Of a stretch of DNA of 64,000 nt, positions 1,913-29,936 are shown piece after piece (the first letter of the stretch is position 1; each line of letters starts with the position of its first letter). The notes beneath the pieces are model-generated. The model ran no database searches. It worked only from the letters and a program-made list of their open reading frames with translations, and was not told the DNA's origin. The translations under genes were made by a program, and so were the position numbers. This DNA comes from a virus. The stretch lies in the UHGV virus genome UHGV-1358930; one strand, 5' to 3'.

Positions 1913-2656
1913 ATGAAAATGGAAAACAAAAGAAATTCAAACAAAAAAGCGTTGGTGCTCTCGTCAGGTGGAGTAGACTCCACTACTTGCGTAGGTATTG
2001 CTGTAAATGAATTAGGTTCTGAAAATGTTAGCACTGTATCGGTGTTTTATGGACAGAAACACAATAAAGAACTTGAATGCGCTGAAAAAGTAGCTGAATT
2101 TTATAATGTAAAGCACTATGTTCTTGACTTGTCTAATGTCCTTCAGTACAGCAACTGTTCTCTAATGAAGAACAGCACAGAAGAAATCCCTATGATGAGC
2201 TACGCAGAGCAGATTGAAAAGAATGGTAAACCATCAACAGAAGTTCCATTGAGAAATGGACTCATGCTCATGGCAGTTGGCTCATTAGCTATGCAACTTT
2301 ATCCAGAAGCTGATGTCGATATTTACATTGGAGCACATGCCGATGATGCTGCAGGTAATGCTTATCCAGATTGCTCTGCAGAATTCATTCAAAACGTAAA
2401 AGAAGCAATATTGATTGGATCTAGATATAAAGTTAACTTAGTTTCTCCATTTGTGAATCATAACAAATCAGAAGTTGTTAAATTAGGGTTATCTATAGGT
2501 GCTCCGTATGAATTAACAACTTCCTGTTACAATGGCAGAGAGAAAGCTTGTGGATTGTGTGGAACCTGCAGAGATCGTATAGCTGCATTCAAAGCAAACA
2601 ATGCAATTGACCCAATTGAATATGAAATTGACGACCCATTCAAAGAAATGCGATGA
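1913..2656 (+). CDS. queC: 7-cyano-7-deazaguanine synthase QueC
   Basis: PP-loop '[13 protein letters not shown]', C-terminal Zn-binding CGLCGTC typical of QueC. Confidence 0.85.
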
Positions 2657-2663
2657 TGTTCAA

Positions 2664-3260
2664 ATGGAAATATGGCGACCTGCTAAAGGATATGAAGATA
2701 AATATGAGGTGAGCAATTTAGGACGAGTAAGAAATTCAAAGCATTATATCATGAAACCACATCTACAAGATGATGGATATCTTTGGATATACCTTGCGTC
2801 TAAAACTAGTCCTAACAACACATCAATTCATAGGCTAGTTGCTAAAACGTTTATTCCGAATCCAGAAGGCAAACCGCAAGTAAATCACATAGACGGGAAC
2901 AAAACAAATAATCGAGTTGAGAATCTAGAATGGGTTACAGGATCTGAAAATGTTAAACATGCTTATGCCAATAATCTAATTGCAGACAAATCTCCTGAAG
3001 GCATCAGAAATATTGTAGCAGCAGCTAGAAAATCATTGAAGAAATATTGCAACATCCCGATAATATGTGAAACTACAGGGCAAGAGTTTGAATCTATTCA
3101 TCATGCTGCACTACATTATGATGTAGACGATACCACTATTCAAAACATCGTAAGAAATGTAACAAAAAGATCCAGAAAACTACCTGGATTGAAATTTAGA
3201 TTCAAATATCCAGAGATTACTTGTAGATCACCTCATAGAAAGAAACATTTAATTAAATAG
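2664..3260 (+). CDS. Free-standing HNH homing endonuclease (NUMOD4 + HNH_3) inserted between queC and queD
   Basis: '[11 protein letters not shown]' NUMOD4-like N-term; '[24 protein letters not shown]' HNH motif; internal Met after queC stop. Confidence 0.75.
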
Positions 3261-3276
3261 CTTTGGAGGAATGAGA

Positions 3277-3714
3277 ATGTATACAGTAAAAACAAAAGTA
3301 TCTTTTGAAGCTGCGCATCGTCTATACAATGTAGACACATACTCAAAAGAATGCAGAGATAATCTCCATGGGCACTCATACAAAGTAGAAATTGTCGTAG
3401 GCGCAGATAACTTGAACTCTGCTGGAATGGTTATTGATTTCAAGCTGCTAAAAACAGTTATTCGAGAAGAGATTGAATCTAAATATGATCATTCTTGTAT
3501 ATTGAGAAAATGCGATCCAATTGCAAATACTATCAAGGAAAACTGTAAGAAAGTTATCCTTGTTGACGAAAGTCCTACTGCAGAATGGATGGCAAAAGAA
3601 TTCTATGACATGATTGAATCTAAAGTTCATACGTATTCTTCTGATTTACATGTTGTTTCAATTGGAGTACAAGAAACAGAAAATAACATTGCGTATTATC
3701 TTCCGGAGGAATAA
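3277..3714 (+). CDS. queD: 6-carboxy-5,6,7,8-tetrahydropterin synthase QueD
   Basis: 'FEAAHRL...HGHSYKVEIVV' QueD/PTPS signature; SD GGAGGA 7 nt upstream. Confidence 0.85.
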   Translation: MYTVKTKVSFEAAHRLYNVDTYSKECRDNLHGHSYKVEIVVGADNLNSAGMVIDFKLLKTVIREEIESKYDHSCILRKCDPIANTIKENCKKVILVDESPTAEWMAKEFYDMIESKVHTYSSDLHVVSIGVQETENNIAYYLPEE

Positions 3715-3716
3715 AC

Positions 3717-4358
3717 ATGAAAGTTATCGAATTATTTAATAGTATTGATGGAGAGGGCAAACGAGCTGGTATGCTCGCTACGTTTATACGTCTGTCTACG
3801 TGCAATCTTAGATGCAGTTACTGCGATTCCGCTTACGCTTTCGATGATAAGCTTGCTGAAGAGATGTCAATTCAAAGTATTGTAGCAAACTGCGACAAAT
3901 ATGATTGTCCGCAAATTACGCTAACTGGTGGAGAGCCTTTGATTTCCAGAGACGTAGAGCTACTTTTATCCGAACTTGATTCTCATGGATATGACGTCAA
4001 TGTGGAAACAAATGGGTCTATTGATCCATCCGCATATCATAAATACAAAAATGTTTGGTTCACAATTGACTGGAAATGCCCTTCTAGCGGTATGGAGTCA
4101 AAAATGAATCCGAAAGCATTTGAAACACTTCGTGAGCAGGATGTACTAAAATTCGTAGTAGGGTCAAATGAGGACTTACAAGATGCGTTACACGTCATCA
4201 AGAAGTACAACCCAAAATGCTCAATCTATTTCAGTCCGGTATTTGGATATGATGCAAAAAATATCGTAGAATTCATGAAAGATCACAAACTGAATGATTG
4301 CAAAGTTCAGCTTCAAATTCATAAGTATATCTATGACCCGAATGCTAGAGGAGTATGA
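3717..4358 (+). CDS. queE: 7-carboxy-7-deazaguanine synthase QueE (radical SAM)
   Basis: '[10 protein letters not shown]' radical-SAM Cys triad; QueE-like length. Confidence 0.85.
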
Positions 4359-4951
4359 TCAAAGAAGGTGTTGATATGAAAAATATTGATAAAAACAAAA
4401 TTGAAAAGCTGACAAGAGAGCTCTTAGTAGCTTTAGGCGATGATCCTGACAGAGAAGGGTTGAAGAAGACTCCAAGTCGAGTTGCAAGAATGTGTGATGA
4501 ATTATTTGAAGGTATGACACATTCGAATCACGAGATAGCTGAAATGTTCAATACATGTTTTGAAGATGTAAAAACTGGAGATCTTGTAGTGGAGAGCAAT
4601 ATTCCGATTCACTCCTGCTGCGAACATCATCTCATGCTGATGTATGATATGTCAGTAGCTATTGGATACATTCCAAATGGTAAAGTTATCGGATTATCTA
4701 AGCTTGCTAGAATTTCTGACATGGTTGGAAAGCGACTTCAGTTGCAAGAACGAATCGGTTCAGATATCGCAGATATTCTCCACGAAATTCTCAATACCAA
4801 TGACATCATTGTTGTCATTCAAGGAAAGCACGGATGCATGACAGCACGCGGCATTAAATCAAGAGAAGCAATAACTCGAACAGCTACACTTAGAGGAAGA
4901 TTTGAGTCAGATTCAGATCTACGATCCGAATTCTATTCTCTCATCAAATAA
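4355..4951 (+). CDS. folE: GTP cyclohydrolase I FolE
   Basis: '[10 protein letters not shown]' FolE active-site motif; ~190 aa. Confidence 0.85.
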
Positions 4952-4990
4952 CTTACTTCTGGATACAGATAAGTAGATTGAATCGTTAAT

Positions 4991-5026
4991 GTAGACGTAC
5001 TAAACTATAGTGCGTCTACAATTTTA
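4991..5026 (+). terminator. Hairpin (gtagacgtac...gtgcgtctac) followed by T-rich run after the que/folE operon
   Basis: Imperfect 10-bp stem + 'aattttatata'. Confidence 0.4.
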
Positions 5027-5077: not shown

Positions 5078-5689
5078 TTGAAAAAGCTGATTAGATCTTC
5101 AACAACTGCTGTATATTCAACGCAGATCGCACCAAAAATATTAGAAATTTGGATTGTAGATGATGTTCGGCACTGCAGCGCATCCATAGCAGCTGCAGAC
5201 GAAACTGCCGAAACTCGTGAAGGGCTAGAAACAGAGAAAACATCACAAAATAAAAATTCTAGAATAAGACGAATTGAGCCAAGTGCTGATATCGAAGAAT
5301 TTCTAAATAGTATGAAGAAAGCTCCTATTCTATTTATAGAAAGATCTGCAAAAAATTCGGCATTTTTGAAGTTATATAAAACATTATCTGGAAAATTGTT
5401 TGATGTGGCTGTAGCAAAAGAACTTCTGAATCAGCTTACAGTTTCTGATTATGTATATACTACGGAAAGTGATTCAGCTAATTACAAAGGAGATGAGTTA
5501 ATTGTATTTGAACCTGTGCATGATCTAGTATCTAGAAAAAATGGAGTTGTATTGAAAAATGTCGTAATCTATATGAAAATAGATAAAACAGAGTCAAACG
5601 AAGATGAGACAGTTTTAGTATCATTTCATTCCGCTGAATTTGAAGATGACAAACCGTATAGTTCTGCGAACAACAAGGAGGATAGATGA
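5078..5689 (+). CDS. Hypothetical protein (TTG start)
   Basis: ORF 203 aa with upstream GAGGT SD. Confidence 0.4.
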   Translation: MKKLIRSSTTAVYSTQIAPKILEIWIVDDVRHCSASIAAADETAETREGLETEKTSQNKNSRIRRIEPSADIEEFLNSMKKAPILFIERSAKNSAFLKLYKTLSGKLFDVAVAKELLNQLTVSDYVYTTESDSANYKGDELIVFEPVHDLVSRKNGVVLKNVVIYMKIDKTESNEDETVLVSFHSAEFEDDKPYSSANNKEDR

Positions 5690-6165
5690 GGTACATGAAA
5701 ATTTTTGCATTTGCGGATAAGAAAGATAGCATCAAAGACAAATTGAAAGAGAAATCAGATGATTTAGTATATCACCTCGTGAAAGTATTTTTGTTCCCTA
5801 ACTGCGAAGTGAAACCTCACTGGTGTCAAGAAATCTACGGATTTATTCACAGCGTACCTAAAACTAAAAACAAGAATAAGTTCCCAGACAAGACTTTCAT
5901 CTTCAATAACACTTACGAAATCTGGGGAGATACAATTGAATCCTGTATCATAACTGCTATAAAGGATTATCCTAGTATAGTGCCATTATTTGATCAGCAC
6001 ACCGGGTTAGCTATCTGCGAAACTGCAGTTAGAGAGTATTTTGAATGGTTATCTGAGGAGCTATCTAGTATCGGAAGAGTCGCATCTTCAGATGTATACA
6101 AGAAGATTGATGAGCTAATCGAAGAAGTAGTTCAAAAATTGAATAACACAACATATGCACTATAA
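5686..6165 (+). CDS. Hypothetical protein
   Basis: 159-aa ORF overlapping upstream stop (ATGA coupling). Confidence 0.45.
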   Translation: MRYMKIFAFADKKDSIKDKLKEKSDDLVYHLVKVFLFPNCEVKPHWCQEIYGFIHSVPKTKNKNKFPDKTFIFNNTYEIWGDTIESCIITAIKDYPSIVPLFDQHTGLAICETAVREYFEWLSEELSSIGRVASSDVYKKIDELIEEVVQKLNNTTYAL

Positions 6166-6221
6166 GGAAAAGAAATCTGAACTGAATCATCAAAACGATA
6201 GGAATAAAGGAGAATTTGCTT

Positions 6222-6692
6222 ATGTATGTTAGGAAAATTATGACAGACACAACAAAGCATGCAATGGAGACATTGATGCGAAACATTGGAGGACCGTTTG
6301 GAGCTGCAATTGTTAAAAACGGAGAAGTAATCTGTGTAGAATCAAATTCGGTGTTAAGGGATAAAGACCCAACAGCACATGCGGAAATGAATGCTATTCG
6401 ATCTGCATGCAGAAAGTTGAAGACTTACGATCTAAGTGACTGCGAATTGTATGCAACTGGCAGCCCTTGTCCTATGTGCTTAAGTGCAATAATCTGGGCA
6501 AATATCAAGACAGTATACTATTCTGGTACGTACGAAGATTGCAAGAAGATTGGATTTAGAGATGACTTCATTTTCAATTTCATCAAGAATGATTGCAAGA
6601 ACGATGATATTGTTAAACTAGAATTGCATGACAATGATCTGGCAAATACATTGTACAACGCATATGAAACATTCTCAGGAGAATTATACTAA
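6222..6692 (+). CDS. CDA-fold guanine deaminase-like protein (GuaD-like)
   Basis: 'GGPFGAAIV...DPTAHAEMNAIRSA...GSPCPMCLSAIIWA' closely parallels B. subtilis GuaD (GGPFGAVIV...HAE..PCPMC), ~156 aa. Confidence 0.6.
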   Translation: MYVRKIMTDTTKHAMETLMRNIGGPFGAAIVKNGEVICVESNSVLRDKDPTAHAEMNAIRSACRKLKTYDLSDCELYATGSPCPMCLSAIIWANIKTVYYSGTYEDCKKIGFRDDFIFNFIKNDCKNDDIVKLELHDNDLANTLYNAYETFSGELY

Positions 6693-7878: not shown

Positions 7879-7930
7879 AAATACATTGCAAGTAGATCTA
7901 TTCAAAATAACTTGCAATGTATTTATTATT
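7879..7930 (+). terminator. Perfect 15-bp inverted repeat (aaatacattgcaagt / acttgcaatgtattt, 16-nt loop) followed by ATTATTTT; left arm overlaps an AATCGTTAAATA motif
   Basis: Seen directly; strong stem-loop + T-rich tail. Confidence 0.55.
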
Positions 7931-8058
7931 TTGAGGAGATGATATAGGAAATTTGAAACGATAACATAATCAATATAAGAATACACATCAAAACCGTAAC
8001 TAACGATCTGCGCCAAGCTCGCAAAGATCGCAGCCTATCAAGAAAGGAACATTTATCA

Positions 8059-8712
8059 ATGGATGTAGTAAAGAATATGCGTGGAAGTATTTGGTGGTTG
8101 AAAGACGAATTTGATAAATACAAAGGTGAAAGAGGCATCCTTAGAGGTTCTAGGCCGGTTATCATTATGAATAATCCAGCAAACGAATATAATGATTGCA
8201 CTATTACATATTTGCCGATTTCTAAGTGCGAATCTCATGCTGGTGATGATAGTCGAATTCAAATGTTTTATCAGGTACCTATTCAGATTCCTGGTAATAA
8301 ATCTAGTTATGTATGTTGTAATAGCATCATGACTACAACTACTTCTCATCTTGGAGAATATGTTGGGCAGATTTCAGAAGATAAGCTAAAAGAAGTCGAA
8401 GCCGAATTGATGCGTTATCTTTCTCTTTCTGAAAAAGTCGTTACACGAGAAGTAATAAAAGAGGTTAGGGATACAGACAAGGCAACGAAAACAACTTCTT
8501 TTTCTATTACAGACGCTGTCGCTTGTCCAGAACTCAAAAAAGTATATTCTAGTTGTACTGAAATGGCTAAAGATCTTAACTGCTCTCCTGCGTCTATCAG
8601 CAAGTCGAGTAGATGGGGAAGTAAGCTGATGCACAAATACACAGTGTTTAAAGTAGCAACGGCTGCTGGAAACTATGTTTGCAAAACTAAGGAGGAAATC
8701 AAAAATGAGTGA
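8059..8712 (+). CDS. Hypothetical protein
   Basis: 217-aa ORF. Confidence 0.4.
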   Translation: MDVVKNMRGSIWWLKDEFDKYKGERGILRGSRPVIIMNNPANEYNDCTITYLPISKCESHAGDDSRIQMFYQVPIQIPGNKSSYVCCNSIMTTTTSHLGEYVGQISEDKLKEVEAELMRYLSLSEKVVTREVIKEVRDTDKATKTTSFSITDAVACPELKKVYSSCTEMAKDLNCSPASISKSSRWGSKLMHKYTVFKVATAAGNYVCKTKEEIKNE

Positions 8713-9664
8713 GCTACTTAATATTCCTGGAATTCTTTGGCAAGACCTAGGAACACGAACTGATTCAGAAAACACAACACTTGACAGCTTGATGACGAAA
8801 GCAGGTGCAAACTACACTGTATCTGCATACAAGATGTATACAGAAGTAGCAAACAGCGTACAAGGATATCATGCTATTTACAGAAATGACGACAAACGTC
8901 TGATGTGTGTAGTAAATAATTTCTACCCTGAACTTGTTCAGAATAACATGACGTTTGCTCTCATGGAACCTCTGATGGCTGCGGGACTTGTATCATTTGA
9001 ATTTTCGTCTGTAGCATCAGGTGGACTGTATCACTACGGTGTATTCAAATCTAATAAGACATGTAAGATCCTTAATGAAGATATTGAACATTATTTTCTT
9101 GTAGTGAATGATCATAGCAAGACTGATAGAAAAGTTTCTGTATTCAATCTGCCTGTACGAAAAAAGAATGAAACTATTCTTTTCTGCTCCATGACAAACA
9201 GTGCTTATAAGCTTCGTATGCCAGTTTCTGAAGATAACCTGTCCAATGAAGCTGCTGGCACTATGATCATGTCTTCGATTGATGACGCATTCCTTTGGTG
9301 CGAAATCAAACTAAAAAAGCTATATAATAAGAAGATTGAGCTTGAGGACGTTGCTAAGGTTATGGACGAGTTGTTTCCTTACGTTTCTGCTTCAAATGGA
9401 GATCCGTTGGATACAAAAGCAAACGAAAAAGTTGACGAGCTCAGAAGCACCTTCCAAGAGTGCATTGATTCAGATGATAATGATGAATATCGTCAAACTG
9501 CACTATATCTTTACCTTGGTATGCTAGATTATACGCAGCACTACTGGGCAAGTGCAGAAAAAGGATACGACATCAACAAGAAGATGACCGTAGTACCTGG
9601 ATTCTTTACTTCGATTGATACAGAAGGTGCTAAAGTAGCTAAGCTGCTAAAAATGCTGAAGTAG
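8705..9664 (+). CDS. Hypothetical protein (start at ATG after SD AAGGAGG)
   Basis: ORF 8675..9664; internal Met 8705 preceded by AAGGAGG. Confidence 0.45.
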   Translation: MSELLNIPGILWQDLGTRTDSENTTLDSLMTKAGANYTVSAYKMYTEVANSVQGYHAIYRNDDKRLMCVVNNFYPELVQNNMTFALMEPLMAAGLVSFEFSSVASGGLYHYGVFKSNKTCKILNEDIEHYFLVVNDHSKTDRKVSVFNLPVRKKNETILFCSMTNSAYKLRMPVSEDNLSNEAAGTMIMSSIDDAFLWCEIKLKKLYNKKIELEDVAKVMDELFPYVSASNGDPLDTKANEKVDELRSTFQECIDSDDNDEYRQTALYLYLGMLDYTQHYWASAEKGYDINKKMTVVPGFFTSIDTEGAKVAKLLKMLK

Positions 9665-9685
9665 TAAAATACAAAGTAAAAAATT

Positions 9686-9720
9686 GAGCCGAAGCGTGAC
9701 AACTTCGGCTCTTTTATTAT
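9686..9720. terminator. Bidirectional rho-independent terminator between convergent genes (gagccgaag...cttcggctc + TTTTATTATTTT)
   Basis: 9-bp perfect stem, A-run 5' and T-run 3'. Confidence 0.7.
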
Positions 9721-10490
9721 TTTAAGGAGAAAGTTTCTCTAACATTCATTGACGTATGTAATCTATTGTAAAGCATTGTTTCTGCAGTTTTTAGTTTACT
9801 TTTTACTGTTTTGCTATCTAATCCATACATATCACATATTTTAAATATATCAGAATCTGTAAGTTTGTGCTCTCTATCTATCATCTCTCTCATCAGAAGT
9901 TCTTCAATAGTATCATAATTATCAGAAGATAGGGAGGTTAATTCAATCGACGGGATGTCCTCAGAAGTCAAGAAGGGTTCATGCTTATCAAGATCAGCTA
10001 TGTATAAGGTTCCAAATATGGCTTTTAATGAATCCATCTTATCTACAGGTAAATGTAACCTTGGATCGGATAGATCTTCGTATTTAACTTGACCCCAATG
10101 TTTACCTAACTGTTCTCCGACTTCCATACATAAAGATCTACGAATGGAGTATTTAACTTCGTTCAACTCTCTTTCAATCATCTCTCCTATACGAAGTAAA
10201 TAAAATACTGAAAACGATAGATCTTGTCTATATCCTTTATGTGTTTCATCACCCTGCCATTTGTACCACCAAAAACATTCACAAAAATGAGTCAGAGCTG
10301 ATTGAAGTTTATCTTCATATGTAACAGTAGAATTGTTGATAAATGTTCTACTTGCTACATATCCAAAAAACGCATAGTTAAGCTCTATTATCTCATCGCG
10401 TTGTTTGAAACATTTCATTCGCTCTGCTTTATTTTGTGGCATAGTCGAATATATGTCTAAGGTTCGTTGTTTTATTTCCTCATTAGTCAT
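9717..10490 (-). CDS. Putative phage-encoded sigma factor-like transcription regulator
   Basis: Weak region-2-like ('DEIIELNYAFFGYVASRT') and C-terminal HTH region-4-like segment; only - strand gene in the early region. Confidence 0.3.
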   Translation of the reverse strand: MTNEEIKQRTLDIYSTMPQNKAERMKCFKQRDEIIELNYAFFGYVASRTFINNSTVTYEDKLQSALTHFCECFWWYKWQGDETHKGYRQDLSFSVFYLLRIGEMIERELNEVKYSIRRSLCMEVGEQLGKHWGQVKYEDLSDPRLHLPVDKMDSLKAIFGTLYIADLDKHEPFLTSEDIPSIELTSLSSDNYDTIEELLMREMIDREHKLTDSDIFKICDMYGLDSKTVKSKLKTAETMLYNRLHTSMNVRETFSLK

Positions 10491-15191: not shown

Positions 15192-15768
15192 TTGTATATA
15201 TACACCATATTGTACATACAAACAATGCGACTTAGCTTGTCCTAATAGAGCTGAAGTGAATTGTTGGTTCAAACGATGCCGACTTGATATGTCAAATAAT
15301 TGCTTGCATACTAATATCCGAAATATTGAGAAAGCCGAGGATCTACTAAGTAACAAGTATGGAGAAACTGTGTGGTTTCCCACAGATAATCCTTCAGATG
15401 CAAGCGACACTATTTGCTACGTAGCTATTTGCAAATATGGTAAAGGTACTGCTCTTGGAAACGGAATATACAATCTGGATTTTGCAAAATTTATAGATAT
15501 GATCAAGGAGTCCTGGAATACGCATTTTGAAACAGATAACTTAATTCAGATGCGTGTGTGGTCTTTGTCTGCAAATTACCTAGTTATCTCAAATCTAGAT
15601 TATGTTAGATTTCAAGATTTTGAAAGTCAAACGTTGCTAAGGCTTCTGAATGATCGAAGAGATTATACAAAGACAACTGTAGTAGTTACTAGTAAAGAAC
15701 CTTTGGTCGGCAGCGGAAATTTCTTTCCTAGATTGACTTCTTTGCTAAAGGGGGTCAAGAGCAATTGA
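15184..15768 (+). CDS. Hypothetical protein (194 aa), possibly replication-associated
   Basis: Immediately precedes dnaB with overlap. Confidence 0.4.
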   Translation: MHDCIYTPYCTYKQCDLACPNRAEVNCWFKRCRLDMSNNCLHTNIRNIEKAEDLLSNKYGETVWFPTDNPSDASDTICYVAICKYGKGTALGNGIYNLDFAKFIDMIKESWNTHFETDNLIQMRVWSLSANYLVISNLDYVRFQDFESQTLLRLLNDRRDYTKTTVVVTSKEPLVGSGNFFPRLTSLLKGVKSN

Positions 15769-18188
15769 CGAATTCAGTAGAACTTCAAGTTATTTGTAAA
15801 ATTTTAACAAGTCAAGATGATTCTGAAATTGATAGGCTGTGTGCGTTTGATGAATCCTATTACGCAGTATTCAAAGATCAGATCAAATTTATTCTAGATC
15901 ATAGAGAAAAATATCATACTGTCCCAGACTTGTTTACGTTCCAAGCTCAATTCGAAGACATTGTTTTGATTGATGTAAACGAATCTGCAGATTTTTTAGT
16001 AGACGGACTTCGGAAAAACAAGCAGCAGATCATACTCTTACAAACATTCAATAAGCTATCTGAGTTAGGTTCTGCAGACGTTTCTGAAGCTTGGCAGTTC
16101 TTACAATCCCAATGCGACAAAGCTGCTCAACTTGATAATTCTAACCCGATGGATATCATCAAAGAAGCTCACAAGCGAAGTGATCAAGTTTTATCGCTAA
16201 GTAATCAAACAAGAATTCCTACAGGATTCAAAGAAGTAGATGAAACAATGTATGGAGGATTGTCAACTGTTGAAGAACTTTGTCTTGTAGTTGCTAGAAC
16301 TAACACAGGTAAAGCTCAGCCTCTTTGGAGTAATATCTTAACACCTACTGGGTGGAAGCGTATGCGAGATATTCAAGTAGGAGACATTGTATGCGGTAGA
16401 GATAATGACAATGGTAAAGTAGTTCAAATATTTCCGCAAGGTACAATTGACTACTATCGTGTAAAGTTTGATGATGGTACTTATACGGAGTGTTCTGCAG
16501 ATCATCTTTGGGAAGTTCTGGATAGTGAACGAAGGAAGCATGATAGAAAAACTTATGGTCAGTATCTTACATTGACTACTCGAGATATTCGGAATCATAT
16601 GTATCGCAGATACTCTGTTGATATGTGTGAACAAATTGAATTCGAGAGTGCTTTTGATACAGATAGTGAACTTGACGGATATTTTTTAGGAGCATTTATC
16701 GGGCATGGTAGAAATGTAGGTAACAAGCTATATATTCATTCTCTGTCCGATGTTTCAAAGCGACGTATAATTGATGCATTGTCTAAATATCGTTGTCAAT
16801 TCACAGAAAATGATCCAAATACACTCGTGATTGAGGATAAGAATGATGGTAAGCTTATCCAAAAGATGTTCGAGTACAACTTGATGAACTGCAAAGTCAT
16901 TGATAGACATATTCCGGATATATATTTTCATAGCCCTGTAAATGTTAGAAAAGCTCTGTTATCAGGTCTCTGCGATACAGATAGCACAATGTTATCAAAA
17001 AATCATAGAGGTTGGGTTTTCGTTACATCTTCAGATCAGCTTAAATCTGATTTTGTTTACATTGCTAGATCTTTAGGTGTAAAAGCAAAGGTGTCGACTG
17101 CAAGATCTGGTAGATGGGTTGACTTAGGTGTATCGCACGTTGCGAATACGTACCACAGGGTTATGTGTATCTCAAAATTCAATCCGTTTTATGGTTCACC
17201 AAATTACACAGAATTTGAACGCAGACAGGATAAAACTAAATTTAAAAATCGCAAGCGTGTTTGCAAATTCATTGATTCTATTGAATACGTAGGTAAGACG
17301 GAATGCCAGTGTATCATGGTAGACAATAAGACGCATACATATATTACAGATGATTTTATTGTCACACATAACACCTGGGTTACTACTAAGATGATGGAGT
17401 CTGCACAAGCGAATGGATTTCCTGTACTATATTATAGCCCAGAGATGCAATCTGCTTTCATTGGCACACGATTTGATACCTGGAGAGGTCACTTCCGAAA
17501 TAGCGATATTCAACGAGGTAAATACAGCGAAGACTACATTCAGTACATCAAAGACATTGTTAAAGAGGAAACTGGTGCATTTGTTGCAGAAGACAAAGAT
17601 ATGCCAGGAGGAAAAACAACTGTCAGGTCGATTGAAACTCTAGTCAAGCGACATCATATAAAGCTTGTTATCATTGATGGTCTGTCTTATATGGCAGATA
17701 CAGAAAAGTCTGATAGCGATGTTATTAAGTATAAAAATATATGTACTGGACTATTCCGAATGTCTAAAACATATGGATGTGCTGTAGTAGTATCTGTACA
17801 AGCTAATAGAGACACTAAATCTAATGTCGATGACAAAGGAGTCCCGTGGCCTGATATGTATTCGATTGAAGGCTCAGACCATCCAGGACGTATTGCAACT
17901 CAAGTATTTGCGCTTCGACAATTGTACGAAGAGCATACATTAGAGATAAAGCTGTTGAAGACTAGAAATGCAAAGAATGCAAATCCTACGTTCGCATATG
18001 TATGGGATCCAAATACAGGAAACACAGAGTTTGTTTCGGATGATGCATCGGCTGCTCCTCCTTCTGCTCCTGCACAGCCTAGCAAGTTCTCAACGCCGAC
18101 AGTGTCAGCAAAGATTGTACACACCGATATAGATGATAATCTAATCGATGCCAGTACAGATGACGATCTAGATGACGTTGAGTTTTGA
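15765..18188 (+). CDS. dnaB: DnaB-family replicative helicase interrupted by an intein in the Walker A (P-loop)
   Basis: N-extein ends 'ARTNTGK', C-extein resumes 'TWVTTK' reconstructing GxxxxGKT; downstream RecA-like fold motifs. Confidence 0.75.
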   Translation: MTNSVELQVICKILTSQDDSEIDRLCAFDESYYAVFKDQIKFILDHREKYHTVPDLFTFQAQFEDIVLIDVNESADFLVDGLRKNKQQIILLQTFNKLSELGSADVSEAWQFLQSQCDKAAQLDNSNPMDIIKEAHKRSDQVLSLSNQTRIPTGFKEVDETMYGGLSTVEELCLVVARTNTGKAQPLWSNILTPTGWKRMRDIQVGDIVCGRDNDNGKVVQIFPQGTIDYYRVKFDDGTYTECSADHLWEVLDSERRKHDRKTYGQYLTLTTRDIRNHMYRRYSVDMCEQIEFESAFDTDSELDGYFLGAFIGHGRNVGNKLYIHSLSDVSKRRIIDALSKYRCQFTENDPNTLVIEDKNDGKLIQKMFEYNLMNCKVIDRHIPDIYFHSPVNVRKALLSGLCDTDSTMLSKNHRGWVFVTSSDQLKSDFVYIARSLGVKAKVSTARSGRWVDLGVSHVANTYHRVMCISKFNPFYGSPNYTEFERRQDKTKFKNRKRVCKFIDSIEYVGKTECQCIMVDNKTHTYITDDFIVTHNTWVTTKMMESAQANGFPVLYYSPEMQSAFIGTRFDTWRGHFRNSDIQRGKYSEDYIQYIKDIVKEETGAFVAEDKDMPGGKTTVRSIETLVKRHHIKLVIIDGLSYMADTEKSDSDVIKYKNICTGLFRMSKTYGCAVVVSVQANRDTKSNVDDKGVPWPDMYSIEGSDHPGRIATQVFALRQLYEEHTLEIKLLKTRNAKNANPTFAYVWDPNTGNTEFVSDDASAAPPSAPAQPSKFSTPTVSAKIVHTDIDDNLIDASTDDDLDDVEF
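16314..17372 (+). mobile_element. DnaB intein (~353 aa), class-3-like (N-terminal Ala, Thr+1), with LAGLIDADG homing endonuclease motifs (LDGYFLGAFIGHG; KALLSGLCDTDS)
   Basis: Begins 'AQPLWSN' right after GK, ends 'FIVTHN|T'; block F Cys 'ECQCIMVD'. Confidence 0.65.
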
Positions 18189-18262: not shown

Positions 18263-18420
18263 ATCACACCAGATTTGAAAATAAACATTAAATACCTTTA
18301 TTTTCTTAATCTGTTCCTCTTTCAACGACCTTGCTTGACAAGTCAAGTCTTACTAGATCTCCAGAGGCGTTAATTTCCGCTTGTGCAGCGGTATTTGTTA
18401 TTTTTAGGAGAAAGCTATTC
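18263..18420 (-). ncRNA. Putative TnpB omega-RNA (reRNA) scaffold at tnpB 3' end/right end of element
   Basis: Conserved (>90% identical) in second copy at 63718-63880 while flanks diverge; position matches known omega-RNA location. Confidence 0.4.
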
Positions 18421-19540
18421 TCAAGCCCTCGTTCAATATATTCTTTGATGCATTGATATCTCTATCATGTGTTGTTTGACAATTAGGACAAGTCCAATTT
18501 CTAACTTCAAGATTTTTGACTTCTGGATTTTTGAATCCGCAACAGCTACAAGTTTGAGAAGACGGAAAGAAGGCGTCTATTTTGACAAGTTGTTTTCCAT
18601 ACCAGCTGCACTTGTAAGTCAATAGTTCAACGAATTTTGACCAGCTTGCGTCTGAAATTGCTCTTGCTAGTTTATGATTCTTGACCATATTTTTGACTTT
18701 CAAGTCTTCAACACAGATTATGTCGTGGTTTTTGACAAATTCTGTTGACAGCTTGTGCAAGAAATCATTTCGTTGATTTGAAACTTTCTCAAATTGTTTA
18801 GCAAGTCTGATTCTTGATTTGTTTCTGTTATTAGATCCTTTTTGCTTCTTCGAGAGCTGTCTTTGAAGTCTTCTTAACTTCTTAGTAGACTTTGAAAGGT
18901 ATTTCGGATTTTTGATCTTTTCACCGTCTGAAGTTATTGCGAAATCTTTGATGCCGAGGTCAATTCCTACAACAGATCCAGTTTTGTCAAACTCTTCAAT
19001 TTCAACATCTTTGCAACAGATACTTGCAAAATATTTTCCTGAAGCTGTTTTTGAGATGGTTGCCGAAAGCGGAGTTCCTTTGACATTTAAATTTCCTTTG
19101 AATTTAACCCATTTCAATTTAGGCAAGAAGATCTTGTTATCTAAACAATGAAATTGTGCAGGTGTGGAGTATGTAGCCTTATATGACTGTCTACTTGAAA
19201 GTTTCTTCTTAAATTTAGGATAACCTGGTTGCTTTCCATTCTTTACGTTTCTAAAGAAGTTTTGATACGCAGTATCAAGATCTCTAAGAGACGATTGCAA
19301 AGCCATTGCTTCAGGTTCTTTCAACCATGAATATTCGTCAAGCTTCTTGAGCTTTGTTAAATCTGCAGAATTTTGATTATATGTATTTGACTTTCTTGCC
19401 TCTTCATAATCTTTGATGGATTTAGCAAGATAGTAGTTGTAGACAAATCTGCAGCAGCCAAAGGTTTTTGCAATTTGCTCAATCTGCTGCTTGTTCGGAT
19501 ATATCCGTATTTTATAAGCTTTCAGAATCATTTTGGTCAT
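18404..19540 (-). CDS. tnpB: TnpB (OrfB) RNA-guided nuclease-like transposase accessory protein, IS605/IS607 family
   Basis: '[11 protein letters not shown]...FGCCRFVYN' N-term; C-terminal Zn finger 'CSCCGF...[18 protein letters not shown]'. Confidence 0.8.
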
Positions 19541-20132
19541 CTGAAAGTGCCTCCTTGATTTTAGCTACGCTTCTCTTAGAATACATTTTCATTGAGTAAC
19601 AGTGCAGTAAACTTACGATTTCTTCAAAAATTTCTTCAGAATCAAGTTTTTCGGATCCTAGTTGGGACGCAACAACTATCTCTGTTCCAAATTTTCTAAA
19701 AAGATGATAAAATAGATCAAATCCTACTCTAGACAGTCTGTCTTTATAATTGATAACTACTTTCTCAACTTTATATTCCAATACATCGTCTAATAGTTCA
19801 AAAAACTGTTTTCTGTTTTCAAAAGAAATTCCGGAAGCAACCTCTTGAAAAACACCATCGACTTGAATTCCGGAATTCATGCAAAAACTGTTCAAAGATT
19901 CAAGTTGGTTCGCTAGATCCGATTTTTGAGATATTGTAGAAACTCTAGCGTAGATATAATTTTTTCTTGTTTGACCGTTATTTAATATAGAGTAGACGTC
20001 TTTATCATGATAGATGCGCTTACCTGTAGGTGTTAAGTCATAATGAATGAGTCCTCTTTTGCAATAATGACCAAGTGTTGGCTGTGAAATATTCAATAGT
20101 TGTAACACTTGTTTAGCTTTCATATTGATCAC
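19512..20132 (-). CDS. tnpA: IS607-type serine recombinase TnpA (MerR-like HTH + resolvase catalytic domain)
   Basis: '[17 protein letters not shown]' HTH then '[14 protein letters not shown]' catalytic Ser motif. Confidence 0.75.
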
Positions 20133-25096: not shown

Positions 25097-26365
25097 TTGA
25101 GTTTATTTACCAAGTCACAAATGGCGAAATTCAATGAAGTTGCCGAACGAAGCAAACAGCTTAACAAAGAAAAACCAAAGTCTGTAAATGTATCTACAGT
25201 AAATGCGGAATTGAAGTCGATGTCAGATTCTGTGCTAGAATACTTCAAAGACTCCCCTGCTATCTGCATTCGAACCGCTGATCAGCTACATGAATACATT
25301 GATAAATGTATCGAAGCTGGATACGCTGGTATAGATACAGAAACAACGGGACTAGACAGACAAAGAGATTACATTGTAGGCGCGTCTTTATATTATCCGG
25401 ATGGTACAGAATGTTATATTCCGATGAAACATAAGATCCCTATTTTCGAAACTCCTTACAAAAATCAACTGTCTTATGAAGAAGTAACTAAAGAATTCAA
25501 ACGACTAGAAAACAGCAACATACGACTCATTTTTGCAAATGCTGACTTCGACTTAGCAATGATCTACAAGGATCTAAAAGTTGATTTCAACGATAGATTC
25601 TATTATGATGTTATTCTTGCATGGCGTTGTTTGAAGGAGAATGAGTTACACAATGACTTGAAATTCCTTTACAATAAATATGTATTGAAAGGAAAAGGAG
25701 ATCCTAAACGTTTTAGCGATTTCTTTTCTGTAAAGCTGTTCCCATATTCTGATCCTGAAATCGCTAAATTGTACGCAGCAAACGACGCAAAAATCACATT
25801 TCAACTGTTCAAGTGGCAGCTTCCTTATGTTACAGAAAGTCATCCTAAGTGTCAGAAAGCTCACCTAGAAGCAATATCTAGACTCATTTGGAACATAGAG
25901 TTTCCACTGGTTAAAGTCTGCCAGAATATGTATAGAAGAGGTTCATACATTGATTCTAATGTTGCTAGTGTTTTGAAAAAGCGATACAGAGATGAATACA
26001 ATGTAGAAGTCAAAAAGCTACAAGACATGGTACAAAAAATCATTGATAATACGAATATAGCATATTCAGGTAAACGTCCATTTACTAGAGGAGCAGATTT
26101 CAACCCATCTTCACCTCCTCAAGTTAAATATTTGATATACAATCTACTTCAAATTCCTAAAGGATCGTCTTCTGGAACAGGTAAAGAAGTATTGAACGAA
26201 CTTAATCTGCCTGTAACAAATCAGATACTGAAGGTAAGATCTCTATCTGTACTTATCAATACATTCGTAGAGAAGCTACCAGCTGCCGCAAGTCTGGATC
26301 ATAGAATTCATGGTCAGTTCAAGCAGGTGGGTGCAGCCACGGGCAGGTTGTCTTGTGCCGAGCCT
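25097..26365 (+). CDS. polA: DNA polymerase I (family A) exon 1: 3'-5' exonuclease domain and N-terminal polymerase part, ends '...TGRLSCAEP'
   Basis: Exo I 'GIDTETTGLD'; '..ATGRLSCAEP' = TGRLSSxxP motif; ORF then runs into intron. Confidence 0.75.
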
Positions 26366-27271
26366 AAACATGATAAATCAGATTGGGCTCGTAAAATCGA
26401 GTTAATTCAGGGAAGGGTAGCAGCTTGACGCTGTGAGATAACCCTGAGCCAAGGCTCTCATATATCTACTTAGGAGGTACACGATATGAGAAAGATTCAA
26501 TTCAATGAAGAGACCATCAATGCAATTAAAAATTTTATAGAGTCTGGTCACACAATGGAAGAGACATGTAACAGATTTACGCTCAAATACGATACATTGA
26601 AACGTGTAATGTTTGAGAACAATCTGAAGCCGTATAGAGCAGATAAATCACATCCCGTTATCTTCACTAGAGATGAGGAAAACATCGTATGTAAGCTATA
26701 TTCGACAACTTCAATGACAATGAAAGATATCTGTAAAGAAGTGAAGCTACCTGATTACGCTGTGCAGAAAATACTATCGGATAATTTTTCTGAAAAATAC
26801 AGAAATGAAAGGAAAGCAAAGCTTTATAGATTGTCCAAACGGTGCGAGAATAGTCCGTGGTTTCAGAAATACGGAGCAGACTCTTCTCAGTGGGTCGGAG
26901 GCGTTGTAGACGATGGCAACGGATATGATATGATCAAAAAACCTGAGTGGTACACAGGTAGAAAGTGTTCTGATTATGTCTTTTTACATACAGTTGTGAT
27001 GTGTGAGCACTTAGGTCTAACTGAACTTCCTAAAGGATATGTAGTACATCATATCGACGGAAACAAGAAAAATAACACAATAGATAATTTAGCGTTGATG
27101 ACCGTGTCAGGACACAGTAAGTTACATTTGTTGATGAAGAATCTATGCAAGGTGCAGAGACTATCCGAACAGGAGTAAGCGAAAGCTGAAATGCTAGACA
27201 ATGGTTGTGTATGACATCTATCATTCCTACTAGTTATACAAGCCATCGAAGATATAGTCCACAAATAATTG
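26366..27271 (+). mobile_element. Group I intron 1 in polA carrying an HNH homing endonuclease ORF
   Basis: Exon ends in U, intron ends in G; canonical S element AAGATATAGTCC at 27249-27260; exon 2 resumes 'NLMNIP'. Confidence 0.65.
26486..27178 (+). CDS. Intron-encoded HNH homing endonuclease (I-HmuI-like)
   Basis: 'GYVVHHIDGNKKNNTIDNLALMTVSGHSKLH' HNH motif; SD AGGAGG. Confidence 0.75.
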   Translation: MRKIQFNEETINAIKNFIESGHTMEETCNRFTLKYDTLKRVMFENNLKPYRADKSHPVIFTRDEENIVCKLYSTTSMTMKDICKEVKLPDYAVQKILSDNFSEKYRNERKAKLYRLSKRCENSPWFQKYGADSSQWVGGVVDDGNGYDMIKKPEWYTGRKCSDYVFLHTVVMCEHLGLTELPKGYVVHHIDGNKKNNTIDNLALMTVSGHSKLHLLMKNLCKVQRLSEQE

Positions 27272-27349
27272 AACCTGATGAATATCCCGTCGCATGCGGT
27301 TGATATTCGACATATGTTCAGAGCAACTCCCCAGAAAGATTACACAGTT
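27272..27349 (+). CDS. polA: polA exon 2a (26 aa: NLMNIPSHAVDIRHMFRATPQKDYTV; contains motif A Asp 'DYT')
   Basis: Aligns to PolA 'NLQNIPVRT...IRRAF...DYSQ'; junction inferred. Confidence 0.5.
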
Positions 27350-28710
27350 GAATCAGAAGTAGATGACAATAACGAAGTATCATTCGTTATTGATAATGGA
27401 CATGAATTACAAACATCTGAAGGATATAAGCCAGTAGTAGATATTGTTCCCGGAGATGTTGTAATGTTTGATGATAAGGAGGTATCAAGCTTAATTGTCA
27501 AAGAAGTTGAAACTAAAGGTACGTCAACCCGAGTACGTTTTGATGTCATCTGACTACAGTTTACGAAAGTTGGCTGTAGTAAAACCTTGTTAAGTCGATG
27601 AATACTTGATAGATAATTCTATAACCTAAATACAAGAATTGGTTCGACTATCAAGTTAATATCGAGCAAAATAGGACCTTTTATCTTGTTGAGTATAGTC
27701 TCTTAAAAATTGGAGGTATTCGACATGATAATATATAAAATATACAATGATGTTAATTCTAAGCTTTACATCGGTCAAACAACAAAATCGCTTGAAGAAA
27801 GAATAAATGGGCATCATTCTTCTATGATAGGAGGGCAAGATACTCATCTATATCGAGCAATGCGAAAATACGGATGGGAAAAGTTTCATTTTGAAATAAT
27901 ATCCAGAGCTGATAGTCAAGATGAATTAAATTATCTTGAAGAGTATTATATCCGTAAGTTAGATACAATAAGAAATGGATATAACATGGCTCCAGGAGGA
28001 TCAAAAAATGTTATGTACTCATCTATCGTAGCAGCTAAACATGATGCTAAAATGAGAACAGATTCTGTAAGAAAGAAAATATCAGAATCAATGAAAAAGT
28101 CTTATGCTTCACGCGGTGGTCCCTCAGAAGAACACAGGAAGCATCTTTCACAAGCCAAGAAGGAATATTATCAAACTCCTGAAAGCGAATTGACACGAGA
28201 AAGGTTTAGAAAGTCATTCAAGCTATCTCCTGAGCATTATAAGGCACTGAATGACGCGAAAAACAAAAGTGTATATTGCATAAATGAATCTAATGAAGTA
28301 GTTGCAAAATTTGATAGGGTCAAAGATGCAGCTATTTGGTGGATGTCTACTGGGTACAAAGTTAAACATTATGATCAACTTTGTGACAAAATAAAAGAGT
28401 CCAGCAAGCAAAATAGATTCATAAAGGGGCTAAAATGGTTCTATTGTGTGTAGAGACTATCGAAAGCTAGAAATTGACATTCAGAGAAATCTGTAAATGA
28501 TTTTAGGTAAATCAGGTCAGTTGAGATAACCAAGTGAGTAGAGTACAGCTCAAGTGAGTTAGCATCTGCATGATATTAGTGTAGAGTAAGCCTATTGAAT
28601 GGAAATTCAAGGGTTCATTTGAATTGGTGATAGATTCAAATGTTCAAGAGATAGTCCGGCACTCTTGGTGACAAGAGAAATGTTTAACGAACATTCAACT
28701 AATTAAGCAG
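27350..28710 (+). mobile_element. Group I intron 2 in polA carrying a GIY-YIG endonuclease ORF
   Basis: S-like element AGAGATAGTCCGG 28647-28660; shares GAGATAACC element with intron 1. Confidence 0.5.
27710..28453 (+). CDS. Intron-encoded GIY-YIG homing endonuclease
   Basis: 'IYKIYNDVNSKLYIGQTTKSLEERINGH' GIY-YIG motif + R..E. Confidence 0.75.
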   Translation: MEVFDMIIYKIYNDVNSKLYIGQTTKSLEERINGHHSSMIGGQDTHLYRAMRKYGWEKFHFEIISRADSQDELNYLEEYYIRKLDTIRNGYNMAPGGSKNVMYSSIVAAKHDAKMRTDSVRKKISESMKKSYASRGGPSEEHRKHLSQAKKEYYQTPESELTRERFRKSFKLSPEHYKALNDAKNKSVYCINESNEVVAKFDRVKDAAIWWMSTGYKVKHYDQLCDKIKESSKQNRFIKGLKWFYCV

Positions 28711-28911
28711 CAAGAACCAAAAATTTGCGCATACGTAGGTAACATCAAAGAACTTTGCGAAGGTTTTGCAAACGGGAAAGATGCTTACGCGATGATCGCA
28801 GCTGTTTCTTTCAATAAGTCATATGAAGAATGCTTAGAGTTTCACCCTGTTACGCATGAGTATCAGCCTGAAGGTAAAGCAAGAAGAACAGAATCGAAGT
28901 CCGTACTTTTG
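28711..28911 (+). CDS. polA: polA exon 2b (67 aa, ends '...ARRTESKSVLLG' = motif B RRxxKxxNFG)
   Basis: 'QEPKICAYVGNIKELCEGFANGKDAYAMIAAVSF' aligns to Bsu PolI 'IELRLLAHIADDDNLIEAFQRDLDIHTKTAMDIF'; not annotated in ORF track (no start codon). Confidence 0.5.
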
Positions 28912-29936
28912 GGTGAACGTAAAAGTTATGCCCCATATTTCAAGTTCTCGCATTAAATTTGCTTGAAATATGAAAATCTTGTGAACTACATTGCTCATAG
29001 GTGTTGAGAACACGATTAGGATATACAGGAAATGGTATATAGGTTCTCAGCTAACTGGGGATACTCAAAAGAGTGAATCCAGTGCCAAGCATCAAGTCTT
29101 CACGGAGTTCTATACCTTACATCATATCGGAGGTGTAGAACTTGAACAATTATTCATCATACATCATAACTTGTAAGGACAATGGAATGCAATACATCGG
29201 AATAACTTCTATTGGTTTAAGAAATAGGTGGTATGCACATGTTTCATGTTCTCGAAATTTAAGTAGTAATAATCCAATGTATAAGGATATGAAAGAATTT
29301 GGAGAATCCTCTTTTGAAATACATGAAATTGAATCTGGGTTATCAAAAGAAGAAGCCGATGCGCGTGAAAAGGAACTAATAAAGATTTATAATACAAAGT
29401 GGCCTAACGGATACAACTTAACAGACGGTGGATTCAAGAATGATGGACAGTTATTACCAGAAGGTCGATCGGCTAGAATATCTTGTAAGCTACGCGGAGT
29501 TCCTAAATCAAGCGAGCATAGATTGCATCTAAGTCAGTCTAGGATTGGAAAATACAAAGGAGCAGACAACGCCTTCTATGGTAAACATCATTCTGATGAA
29601 ACTATATTGAATCTTCAGAAGCTATTATCCCACGGAAAGGTTTATCAGTTAGACAAAAAATCTAAATTAGTTGTAGGCACATTTGATAGCGCAGCGTTTG
29701 CAGCAAGATACATATCTGAAAACAAATTATCTTCTGCAAAAATAGATACTATAAATGCTAGATTATGCGAAGTTATGAACAATGATAATCGTTCCGCATA
29801 CGGTTTTATGTGGAGACGCGATGAAGGTCAATCGACTAAGTATTAGAAGAGAAAATAGAGCTACTCTTCGAAGCGCAAGACATTAAGCGAGATAATGATG
29901 ATATAGTCAGCGCCACAAGTGATTGTGGACTAAGTG
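28912..29936 (+). mobile_element. Group I intron 3 in polA (splits motif B) carrying a second GIY-YIG endonuclease ORF
   Basis: Exon 2b ends ..GGT (U), intron ends ..AAGTG (G); S-like GATATAGTCAG at ~29900. Confidence 0.55.
29142..29846 (+). CDS. Intron-encoded GIY-YIG homing endonuclease (second copy, paralog of 27710)
   Basis: 'YIITCKDNGMQYIGITSIGLRNRWYAH' GIY-YIG; C-terminal region similar to 27710 ORF. Confidence 0.75.
   Translation: MNNYSSYIITCKDNGMQYIGITSIGLRNRWYAHVSCSRNLSSNNPMYKDMKEFGESSFEIHEIESGLSKEEADAREKELIKIYNTKWPNGYNLTDGGFKNDGQLLPEGRSARISCKLRGVPKSSEHRLHLSQSRIGKYKGADNAFYGKHHSDETILNLQKLLSHGKVYQLDKKSKLVVGTFDSAAFAARYISENKLSSAKIDTINARLCEVMNNDNRSAYGFMWRRDEGQSTKY

Follow-up and report, generated by a model that had tools for sequence, protein, structure and literature searches.

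A phage gene predicted to encode a guanine deaminase of the Bacillus subtilis GuaD type is recurrently linked, in phages specifically, to the genes for 7-deazaguanine DNA modification. We met the gene at nucleotides 6222-6692 of a 64,000-nucleotide stretch of the viral genome UHGV-1358930 (the window), where it follows the genes that make the 7-deazaguanine bases preQ0 and preQ1. We propose that GuaD serves phages as a dispensable accessory to the modification of their DNA with 7-deazaguanines. With a probability of roughly 0.55, the enzyme disposes of or recycles the guanine set free by the DNA guanine transglycosylase DpdA; its substrate, its selectivity and the benefit to DpdA are what we infer here.

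An initial annotation of the window had called a deaminase paired with a DNA transglycosylase an unusual combination and had suggested a co-occurrence analysis with dpdA in phage genomes. That analysis uncovers a strong linkage with que and dpdA genes. Within a first scan of IMG/VR, the deaminase gene lies within or beside DpdA, QueC, QueD, QueE or FolE genes in 25 of 27 good loci. A broader, alignment-based scan gave 141 viral relatives, and among the best 80 of these 141, which were analysed, que or dpdA genes are found no more than 10 kb from GuaD at 62 (24/25 plus 38/55). All 271 of the nearby que/dpdA matches share the GuaD strand, and the nearest such gene is 100 bp or less from GuaD in 27 of 63 loci. 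Thirteen gene orders were observed, including DpdA-QueC-GuaD-QueD-QueE-FolE, DpdA-GuaD-QueC-..., ...FolE-GuaD and ...FolE-DpdA-GuaD. When open reading frames (ORFs) within 6 kb are clustered, FolE, QueE, QueC, DpdA and QueD emerge as the five commonest companions of GuaD. Among the 18 viral loci counted as unlinked, five have a YhhQ transporter gene beside GuaD, and DpdA is encoded elsewhere on four of the contigs, two of which also bear YhhQ.

The control comprised 85 loci from bacterial genomes and metagenome-assembled genomes (MAGs), with homologues 46-61% identical. Only two have que/dpdA genes near GuaD, and both are phage-like contigs in MAGs, one identical to the contig of a viral locus and the other a 202-kb contig collinear with jumbo-phage loci, leaving 0 of 83 genuine cellular loci (phage versus cellular, Fisher's exact p ~1e-29). 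Cellular GuaD genes have ordinary contexts, and one adjoins genes for molybdenum cofactor and XdhC, a setting that fits purine catabolism. The combination first remarked on as unusual is therefore a recurrent, phage-specific linkage (62/80 viral versus 0/83 cellular). The phages that carry it are diverse, with contigs of 35 to ~200 kb and DpdA proteins 25-40% identical to that of the window.

Two further genes commonly accompany the deaminase. A small Gpt-like purine phosphoribosyltransferase (PRTase; 119-187 amino acids) is encoded at 15 GuaD loci (L021 9481-10008, L010 10472-10897, L196 10480-10863 and 12 more), in 13 of these directly beside GuaD, and in some loci the stop and start codons of the two genes overlap. 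Its best match in the PDB is a purine PRTase of P. horikoshii (2e-13), followed by the E. coli xanthine-guanine PRTase, and the NCBIfam xanthine PRTase model matches it at 1e-10, under that model's cut-off. The PRTase is never beside a cellular GuaD gene in the control loci, and it occurs without GuaD in seven more que clusters (L275, L280, L313, L315, L319, L321 and L327). The second companion, a YhhQ-type preQ0/preQ1 transporter (TIGR00697, 74.6 bits against a cut-off of 50.95; Pfam Vut_1), is present in 30 GuaD loci.

An exhaustive HMMER search for fused proteins revealed a natural Xpt-GuaD fusion (P0215, a public protein of 342 amino acids), whose PRTase domain is of the B. subtilis xanthine PRTase type (1.8e-42 to 2fxv/1y0b). 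This fusion provides Rosetta-stone evidence that the deaminase family typified by the B. subtilis enzyme feeds xanthine to a PRTase. Other partners fused to the deaminase are Macro, response-regulator receiver, GNAT and BrkB domains, and the search found no protein joining it to a que protein or to DpdA. The 13 phage loci with adjacent genes thus resemble the known salvage pair of guanine deaminase and xanthine PRTase, matching the route guanine to xanthine to XMP. However, the phage PRTase is small and Gpt-like rather than Xpt-like, its gene sits inside a DNA-modification cluster, and it is absent from this window.

Identity of the deaminase

The gene and its likely ribosome-binding site are as follows.

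6222-6692, + strand: gene for a predicted GuaD-type, CDA-fold zinc guanine deaminase, 156 amino acids plus stop
6206-6212, + strand: Shine-Dalgarno-like AAAGGAG, 9 nucleotides 5′ of the ATG at 6222, by direct reading of the sequence

The deaminase ORF ends with its stop codon at 6692 and has two possible starts, TTG at 6216 and ATG at 6222, of which the ATG gives a protein of 156 amino acids, matching the length of public homologues. The initial annotation had described a protein of about 156 amino acids, near-collinear with B. subtilis GuaD and bearing GGPFGA(A/V)IV, HAE and PCPMC motifs. All of these are present (GGPFGAAIV at residues 23-31, HAE at 53-55, PCPMC at 82-86), and the generic CDA zinc-binding domain of Pfam (PF00383) matches with E=2.9e-24. 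Judged on the sequence, these motif and profile matches are far beyond chance.

The key residues F26, N42, H53, E55, C83, C86, D114 and the C-terminal Y156 (the protein ends in ...GELY) do not vary across the 15 phage and 120 database homologues compared. From the literature on CDA-type guanine and guanosine deaminases (PMC9081823, PMC10663702, PMC9739398), H53, C83 and C86 are assigned as zinc ligands, E55 as the proton shuttle, N42 as the substrate anchor, D114 as a second acidic residue, F26 as a stacking residue and the terminal tyrosine as a lid. The anchoring asparagine corresponds to N66 of the guanine deaminase NE0047 and to N69 of the Arabidopsis guanosine deaminase (GSDA, or AtGSDA), and the second acid to NE0047 E143 and to D114 of the B. 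subtilis guanine deaminase (bGD).

Indeed, bGD (1wkq/1tiy) is the best match in a PDB search (E=1.3e-32, 115.7 bits). The alignment is ungapped over residues 14-125 with identical residue numbering, N42 and D114 are aligned, and identity counted over the same residues is ~47%; bGD itself has 156 amino acids and ends in tyrosine (KKEY). Arabidopsis GSDA ranks second (5.5e-28), and lower scores were obtained for the best TadA (2.3e-20, 75.9 bits), for NE0047 (1.5e-13) and for dCMP deaminases (~1e-6, ~31 bits). The GFxDxF loop matches that of bGD in length, and GSDA has one residue fewer there. An AlphaFold2 (AF2) monomer model built on a 59-sequence alignment reached a pLDDT of 93.3, and Foldseek superposes it on the 1wkq chains over 153-164 columns (TM 0.86-0.91; 0.88-0.89 over all 156 residues), whereas guanosine deaminase and TadA align over a core of only ~100-110 residues (TM 0.6-0.7).

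By every sequence and modelled-fold criterion applied, the protein classifies as a guanine deaminase of the bGD/GuaD type, and we predict that it is a working enzyme of this type, converting guanine and water to xanthine and ammonia. The initial identification as GuaD is thus upheld by sequence, profile and fold, with bGD the best PDB match and the superposition extending over the full length.

The profile comparison with TadA and dCMP deaminase that had been proposed alongside that identification also favours GuaD. Generic pipelines and PHROGs attach the labels 'dCMP deaminase' or 'TadA' to the shared zinc-binding core, and it is nevertheless extremely improbable that a TadA or a dCMP/cytidine deaminase merely sits by the cluster: the NCBIfam TadA model scores 62.1 bits against a cut-off of 150 and the best PDB TadA 75.9 bits against 115.7 for bGD, the NCBIfam ComEB model reaches 41 bits against a cut-off of 219 and PDB dCMP deaminases ~31 bits, the PHROG dCMP-deaminase matches span residues 46-114 only, and the GuaD-specific N42, GFxDxF loop and terminal-tyrosine lid are all in place.

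The phage protein shares with bGD (GuaD/YknA; 1WKQ, 1TIY) its length, numbering, HAE and PCPMC zinc site, N42, D114 and tyrosine-ended arm. The two differ in subfamily and setting. Where bGD has GFDDS and ends in -EY, the phage copy has GFRDD and an -(I/L)Y end, the signature of a separate subfamily, mostly of Clostridia/Bacilli/Tenericutes type, that occurs widely in Clostridia, Bacilli, Negativicutes, Tenericutes and spirochaetes. In addition, bGD serves nitrogen-regulated purine catabolism, whereas the phage copy is linked to deazaguanine DNA-modification genes. Guanine deaminases of Lentilactobacillus were considered as characterised GFRDD members and set aside, being irrelevant amidohydrolase-type proteins of ~50 kDa.

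The window belongs to a large phage genome of metagenomic origin. Its relatives include a 124-kb IMG/VR contig (L001) and a 161-kb contig (L253), which encode deaminases 99% and 97% identical, respectively. No near-identical or annotated phage was found by megablast against INPHARED, and no cultured phage is close. A tblastn search gave distant or TadA-like matches only, and an unannotated 8.7-kb fragment proved to lack que genes.

A neighbour-joining tree of 105 deaminase sequences, rooted on bGD with 300 bootstraps, places the linked phage GuaDs in five or six groups scattered among cellular ones, and in none of the 300 bootstraps do these phage sequences form a single clade. The gene of locus L110 is the sister of the jumbo-phage group in 261 of 300, and this gene is chromosomal, with phosphofructokinase (PFK), NrdD, ThiF and DnaE as neighbours. 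On the basis of this tree we propose that phages captured GuaD from Firmicutes-like hosts more than once. Phage and cellular copies show no difference at any catalytic or ligand-contact position among the 15 phage and 120 database homologues.

Proposed fate of the released guanine and other possible roles

Because the pairing recurs in unrelated phages and not in bacteria, the enzyme most likely clears or recycles guanine from the base swap. In the pathway we envisage, FolE, QueD, QueE, QueC and QueF would convert GTP to preQ0/preQ1. DpdA would excise guanine from phage DNA via a covalent enzyme-DNA intermediate and insert the deazaguanine, freeing one guanine per exchange. Free guanine would be a second substrate of DpdA, competing with preQ0/preQ1 and leading to futile exchange of G for G, and the deaminase would turn it irreversibly into xanthine. 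In some phages the adjacent xanthine/guanine-type PRTase would return the purine through XMP and GMP to GTP, the precursor used by FolE, and so close the loop. By reading N7 of the purine, the C-terminal tyrosine lid would let the enzyme destroy guanine while sparing 7-substituted 7-deazaguanines.

Xanthine is without the 2-amino group that TGT-type pockets recognise, and guanine is poorly soluble. For a 124-kb genome of 37% GC, the guanine freed comes to ~0.06-15 mM-equivalents per fL of cell across the replaced fractions and burst sizes considered (~1-15 mM-equivalents at 25-100% of G exchanged and bursts of 50-200). The computed release is far above the solubility of guanine and also exceeds the micromolar Km typical of TGT enzymes.

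Published work bears on two of these steps. Bacterial DpdA/DpdB exchanges [14C]guanine into DNA by a double-displacement mechanism (PMC10164549), and since incorporation of [14C]guanine is used as the assay for this enzyme, free guanine is a competent second substrate. In the homologous AtGSDA the terminal tyrosine forms a hydrogen bond to N7 through its hydroxyl, catalysis requires the lid to close, and its closure restricts the size of the ligand (PMC9739398); NE0047 is highly sensitive to alterations of the guanine scaffold, accepting almost none (PMC9081823). Because the lid reads N7 and both preQ0 and preQ1 carry a substituted C7, the deaminase should spare the base that is being inserted.

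The nature of the final base differs among GuaD loci. The gene co-occurs with QueF (14 loci, the preQ1 route), with the ArcS2 core (the archaeosine route) and with plain preQ0 clusters, and its presence alongside several final-base routes suggests that its role is tied to a step common to all. At one locus (L013), the interval between DpdA and the deaminase (7880-9989) holds genes for another, divergent QueC-like protein, for a protein resembling class-V aminotransferases and for a HAD-type phosphatase, which may represent a pathway to a different deazaguanine derivative.

Several observations weigh against removal of the DpdA by-product as the function of the enzyme. GuaD is optional, being present in 21 of 50 que-adjacent loci (from 80 viral DpdA loci nearest one GuaD-linked DpdA clade) and in 0 of 13 loci of another DpdA sample, and tblastn finds no GuaD in cultured deazaguanine phages, Dp-1 included. 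A DUF6884 gene fills the GuaD slot in near-identical phages (L256 10897-11313 and L260 11261-11677, directly 5′ of QueC; their DpdA proteins share 91-98% identity with the one of L015). In the window, DpdA is encoded 33 kb from the deaminase gene, and a terminator-like hairpin (4990-5020) and two ORFs stand between FolE and the deaminase. Insertion of preQ1 by TGT is practically irreversible, so any benefit of GuaD would be kinetic, through less competition, and not thermodynamic. Guanine deamination is also a costlier route to GTP than direct phosphoribosylation. Finally, the GFRDD subfamily (GFDDS in bGD) is placed as guanine deaminase on sequence grounds, and the phage deaminase scores 115.7 bits with bGD, about as much as bGD does with plant guanosine deaminase (118.8 bits).

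DUF6884 was considered as a strict alternative to GuaD and rejected, as both co-occur in L113, L199 and L267.

Of the three roles put forward in the initial annotation, depletion or recycling of the guanine pool and action on guanine released by DpdA are the ones we favour, by inference from the linkage and the mechanism above. A guanine pool unconnected with DpdA is a somewhat different matter. As a general purine-pool auxiliary acting on host guanine, the enzyme could relieve guanine-dependent repression of purine synthesis (through a guanine riboswitch or PurR in Firmicutes), supply XMP towards GTP for FolE, or provide ammonia, which QueC needs. The enzyme looks the same as housekeeping GuaD, the window gene lies in a unit that follows the hairpin at 4990-5020, and one phage group has GuaD by dUTPase and UvsX in a replication/nucleotide module, 5 kb from DpdA. 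A tblastn match to QueC is the closest que/dpdA gene, directly abutting GuaD, in 17 of 63 loci. A general purine gene, however, would be expected across many kinds of phage, yet 62 of the 80 viral copies are within 10 kb of que/dpdA genes and more are beside the preQ0/preQ1 transporter. QueE already frees one ammonia per 7-carboxy-7-deazaguanine (CDG), xanthine also binds guanine riboswitches, and deamination cuts rather than raises the direct salvage of guanine to GMP. We therefore regard this explanation as unlikely.

The third role in the initial annotation, action on a 7-deazaguanine base, is disfavoured and somewhat more doubtful still. The enzyme would then convert preQ0, preQ1, CDG or 7-deazaguanine to a 7-deazaxanthine-type base, which could become a new DNA base via DpdA, possibly through a nucleotide made by the PRTase, or could be a means of disposing of excess precursor. 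Such chemistry would fit the many loci in which GuaD is embedded between que genes and the presence of the PRTase in que clusters lacking GuaD. It would also have precedents in Streptomyces, where TubE uses CDG with PRPP and TubD performs a reductive deamination (PMC6112128), and in known shifts of DpdA substrate (PMC10516641). Were it true, and a 7-deazaxanthine-type base or nucleotide ended in phage DNA, this would represent a class of DNA modification not seen before. In a weaker form of this idea, DUF6884, the PRTase and GuaD would be interchangeable 'by-product handling' modules that set the extent of G replacement. Against it stand the lack of any phage-specific substitution at catalytic or ligand-contact positions, the invariance of the N7-reading tyrosine, and the interleaving of phage copies with chromosomal ones. 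CDA-type guanine deaminases are intolerant of scaffold changes (PMC9081823), and the lid limits ligand size (PMC9739398). An altered DpdA specificity finds no support in the catalytic and conserved residues, which do not vary between GuaD-linked phages, unlinked phages and Dp-1, and GuaD accompanies several final-base pathways.

The likeness to tubercidin/toyocamycin tailoring (TubE/ToyH PRTase and TubD/ToyE reductive deaminase; PMC6112128) extends to a deazaguanine core, a PRTase and the enzymatic loss of the 2-amino group. That tailoring acts on nucleotides, uses an enzyme of the GMP-reductase type and involves no transglycosylase, whereas phage GuaD is predicted to be a hydrolytic base deaminase, is unchanged from the housekeeping enzyme and is accompanied by DpdA.

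A substrate one level up is improbable. A guanosine or deoxyguanosine deaminase, acting on nucleosides or nucleotides, would lower (d)G nucleoside pools, and a nucleoside substrate is conceivable because, by score, the distance of the subfamily from bGD is about that between bGD and the plant guanosine deaminase. The plant enzyme is second in the PDB ranking (5.5e-28) and has the terminal tyrosine in common, the subfamily being about equidistant by score from bGD and GSDA. AtGSDA (PDB 7DBF and others) indeed shares the CDA fold, the asparagine anchor and a terminal tyrosine that caps the site and hydrogen-bonds N7 (PMC9739398). However, it acts on nucleosides, its loop is one residue shorter, only a 110-residue core superposes on the phage model, as compared with 156 columns at TM 0.88 for bGD, and GSDA is almost exclusively reported from plants (PMC9739398). 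The partner PRTase works at the level of the base and an Xpt-GuaD fusion exists. In favour of the base over the nucleoside as substrate we count a fold match that spans the whole chain, a loop as long as in bGD, and the genomic associations.

The surrounding window

The deazaguanine genes and associated features of the window are listed below.

3-227, + strand: short-chain dehydrogenase gene, 3′ end (last 75 codons); tblastn 100% over 75 amino acids
258-1814, + strand, start probably ATG 303: QueF (preQ0 reductase), intein-interrupted; Pfam QueF 1.8e-32
1913-2656, + strand: QueC (preQ0 synthase); Pfam PF06508 9.7e-53, PHROG 1550
2601-3260: NUMOD4/HNH homing endonuclease gene, between QueC and QueD and overlapping the end of QueC
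3271-3714, + strand: QueD (CPH4 synthase, PTPS family); Pfam PF01242 3.4e-27
3717-4358, + strand: QueE (radical-SAM CDG synthase); Pfam Radical_SAM 6e-13 and Fer4_12, homologous to QueE of all related loci
4355-4951, + strand: FolE (GTP cyclohydrolase I); Pfam PF01227 2.2e-62
4990-5020, + strand: terminator-like hairpin after FolE, from a consensus scan only
5686-6165, + strand: conserved phage-only ORF directly 5′ of the deaminase gene; upstream of GuaD in 10 loci
39984-40949, + strand: DpdA (DpdA2-like DNA guanine transglycosylase); PHROG 887, 1.2e-41

The deaminase gene starts 1.27 kb 3′ of the end of FolE, with two small ORFs of no assignable function between them (5078-5689 and 5686-6165), and the hairpin may split the que operon from the deaminase transcription unit. 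With DpdA 33 kb off, the deaminase here neighbours the biosynthesis genes and not the transglycosylase, so the adjacency to the deazaguanine cluster claimed in the initial annotation is true of the former (1.27 kb) and does not extend to DpdA. The ORF at 5686-6165 is of a type of 156-159 amino acids present in three or four phage lineages, with two copies in L242. It has no family match, its homologues are from close phage relatives only, and its AF2 model, of low confidence (pLDDT 52.5), is all-helical and unlike a PRTase.

Upstream of QueF, relatives of the window encode, in this order, the YhhQ/Vut_1 preQ0/preQ1 transporter and a short-chain dehydrogenase (L001 3565-5001; L253 3044-4480). 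The dehydrogenase recurs in 12 GuaD loci, and a sepiapterin-reductase-like role for it is only a guess. The intein of QueF (~480-1472) has Pfam matches to Intein_splicing (1.8e-11), HNH_3 and HTH_38, and its insertion appears recent because QueF is uninterrupted in both close relatives, L001 and L253. The NUMOD4/HNH gene is present in L001 and L003 and absent from L253.

The window DpdA is 39% identical to gp7 of Streptococcus phage Dp-1 and 38% identical to its counterpart in Bacillus phage Flasso, and its conserved residues are D57, D93, H137, E140, H197 and D216. It has no Pfam TGT match, as likewise reported for DpdA2 (PMC6884629). The surrounding system, known here from its genes alone, reads as a Dp-1-like (DpdA2) phage 7-deazaguanine DNA pathway. 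Dp-1, whose DNA holds dPreQ1 at ~1.7% of G (PMC6884629), has the cluster QueF-QueC-QueD-QueE-FolE-QueT-DpdA2 and is likewise a Firmicutes-type phage with QueF in its gene set. It differs in having no deaminase, in encoding QueT where relatives of the window have YhhQ, and in the location of DpdA, which in the window is 33 kb from the que genes. The L204 group keeps a Dp-1-like gene order, but with GuaD inserted between dUTPase and UvsX.

Elsewhere in the window, a 217-amino-acid ORF in the early region (8059-8712) corresponds to an L253 gene with a PemK_toxin Pfam match and may be toxin-like. A strong bidirectional terminator-like hairpin (9686-9711) lies between a + strand block ending at 9664 and a convergent - strand gene (9717-10490). 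A DnaB-like helicase gene (15765-18188) has an inserted, intein-like Hom_end homing-endonuclease domain, and between the helicase and primase genes is an IS607-like pair on the - strand (18404-20132), consisting of a serine recombinase (19512-20132) and a TnpB/OrfB_IS605 protein with a Cas12f-like TNB domain (18404-19540). The coding sequence of a family-A DNA polymerase is split into three or more pieces within 25097-32301 (25097-26428, 29934-31460 and 31636-32301), the middle one with a long insert, and the endonuclease-like ORFs between pieces are HNH-like (26486-27178) and, by eye only, GIY-YIG-like (27710-28453 and 29142-29846). No tRNA genes were found in the 64-kb window.

A proposed accessory module of a known phage system

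Ordinary in itself, the gene stands out for having been recruited repeatedly, and specifically in phages, next to a pathway of DNA base exchange. The novelty lies in this association, and we regard GuaD, with or without the Gpt-like PRTase, as an unlisted accessory 'by-product handling' module of a known phage system. Hutinet 2019 and Cui 2023 (the latter without its supplementary tables) mention no deaminase, xanthine or phosphoribosyltransferase, and a 2026 study of QueC-family neighbourhoods mentions no deaminase. In our literature search, whose scope did not include subscription journals so that an earlier mention is possible, guanine deaminase is nowhere joined to DpdA or to the modification of DNA with deazaguanines.

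Phages are known to install 7-deazaguanines only by post-replicative base exchange, which yields one free guanine per modified site. The fate of this guanine is unaddressed in the papers on phage 7-deazaguanine modification that we searched. The repeated, independent recruitment of a deaminase, together with a PRTase in some phages, suggests that removal or recycling of the by-product limits the extent of modification. If true, this would partly account for the spread of replacement levels among phages, from <2% to 100%, and would offer a cheap means of raising the modification yield when the pathway is rebuilt in heterologous hosts. It would also provide two extra marker genes for recognizing deazaguanine-modifying phages in metagenomes, above all among the uncultured Firmicutes phages of gut and rumen.

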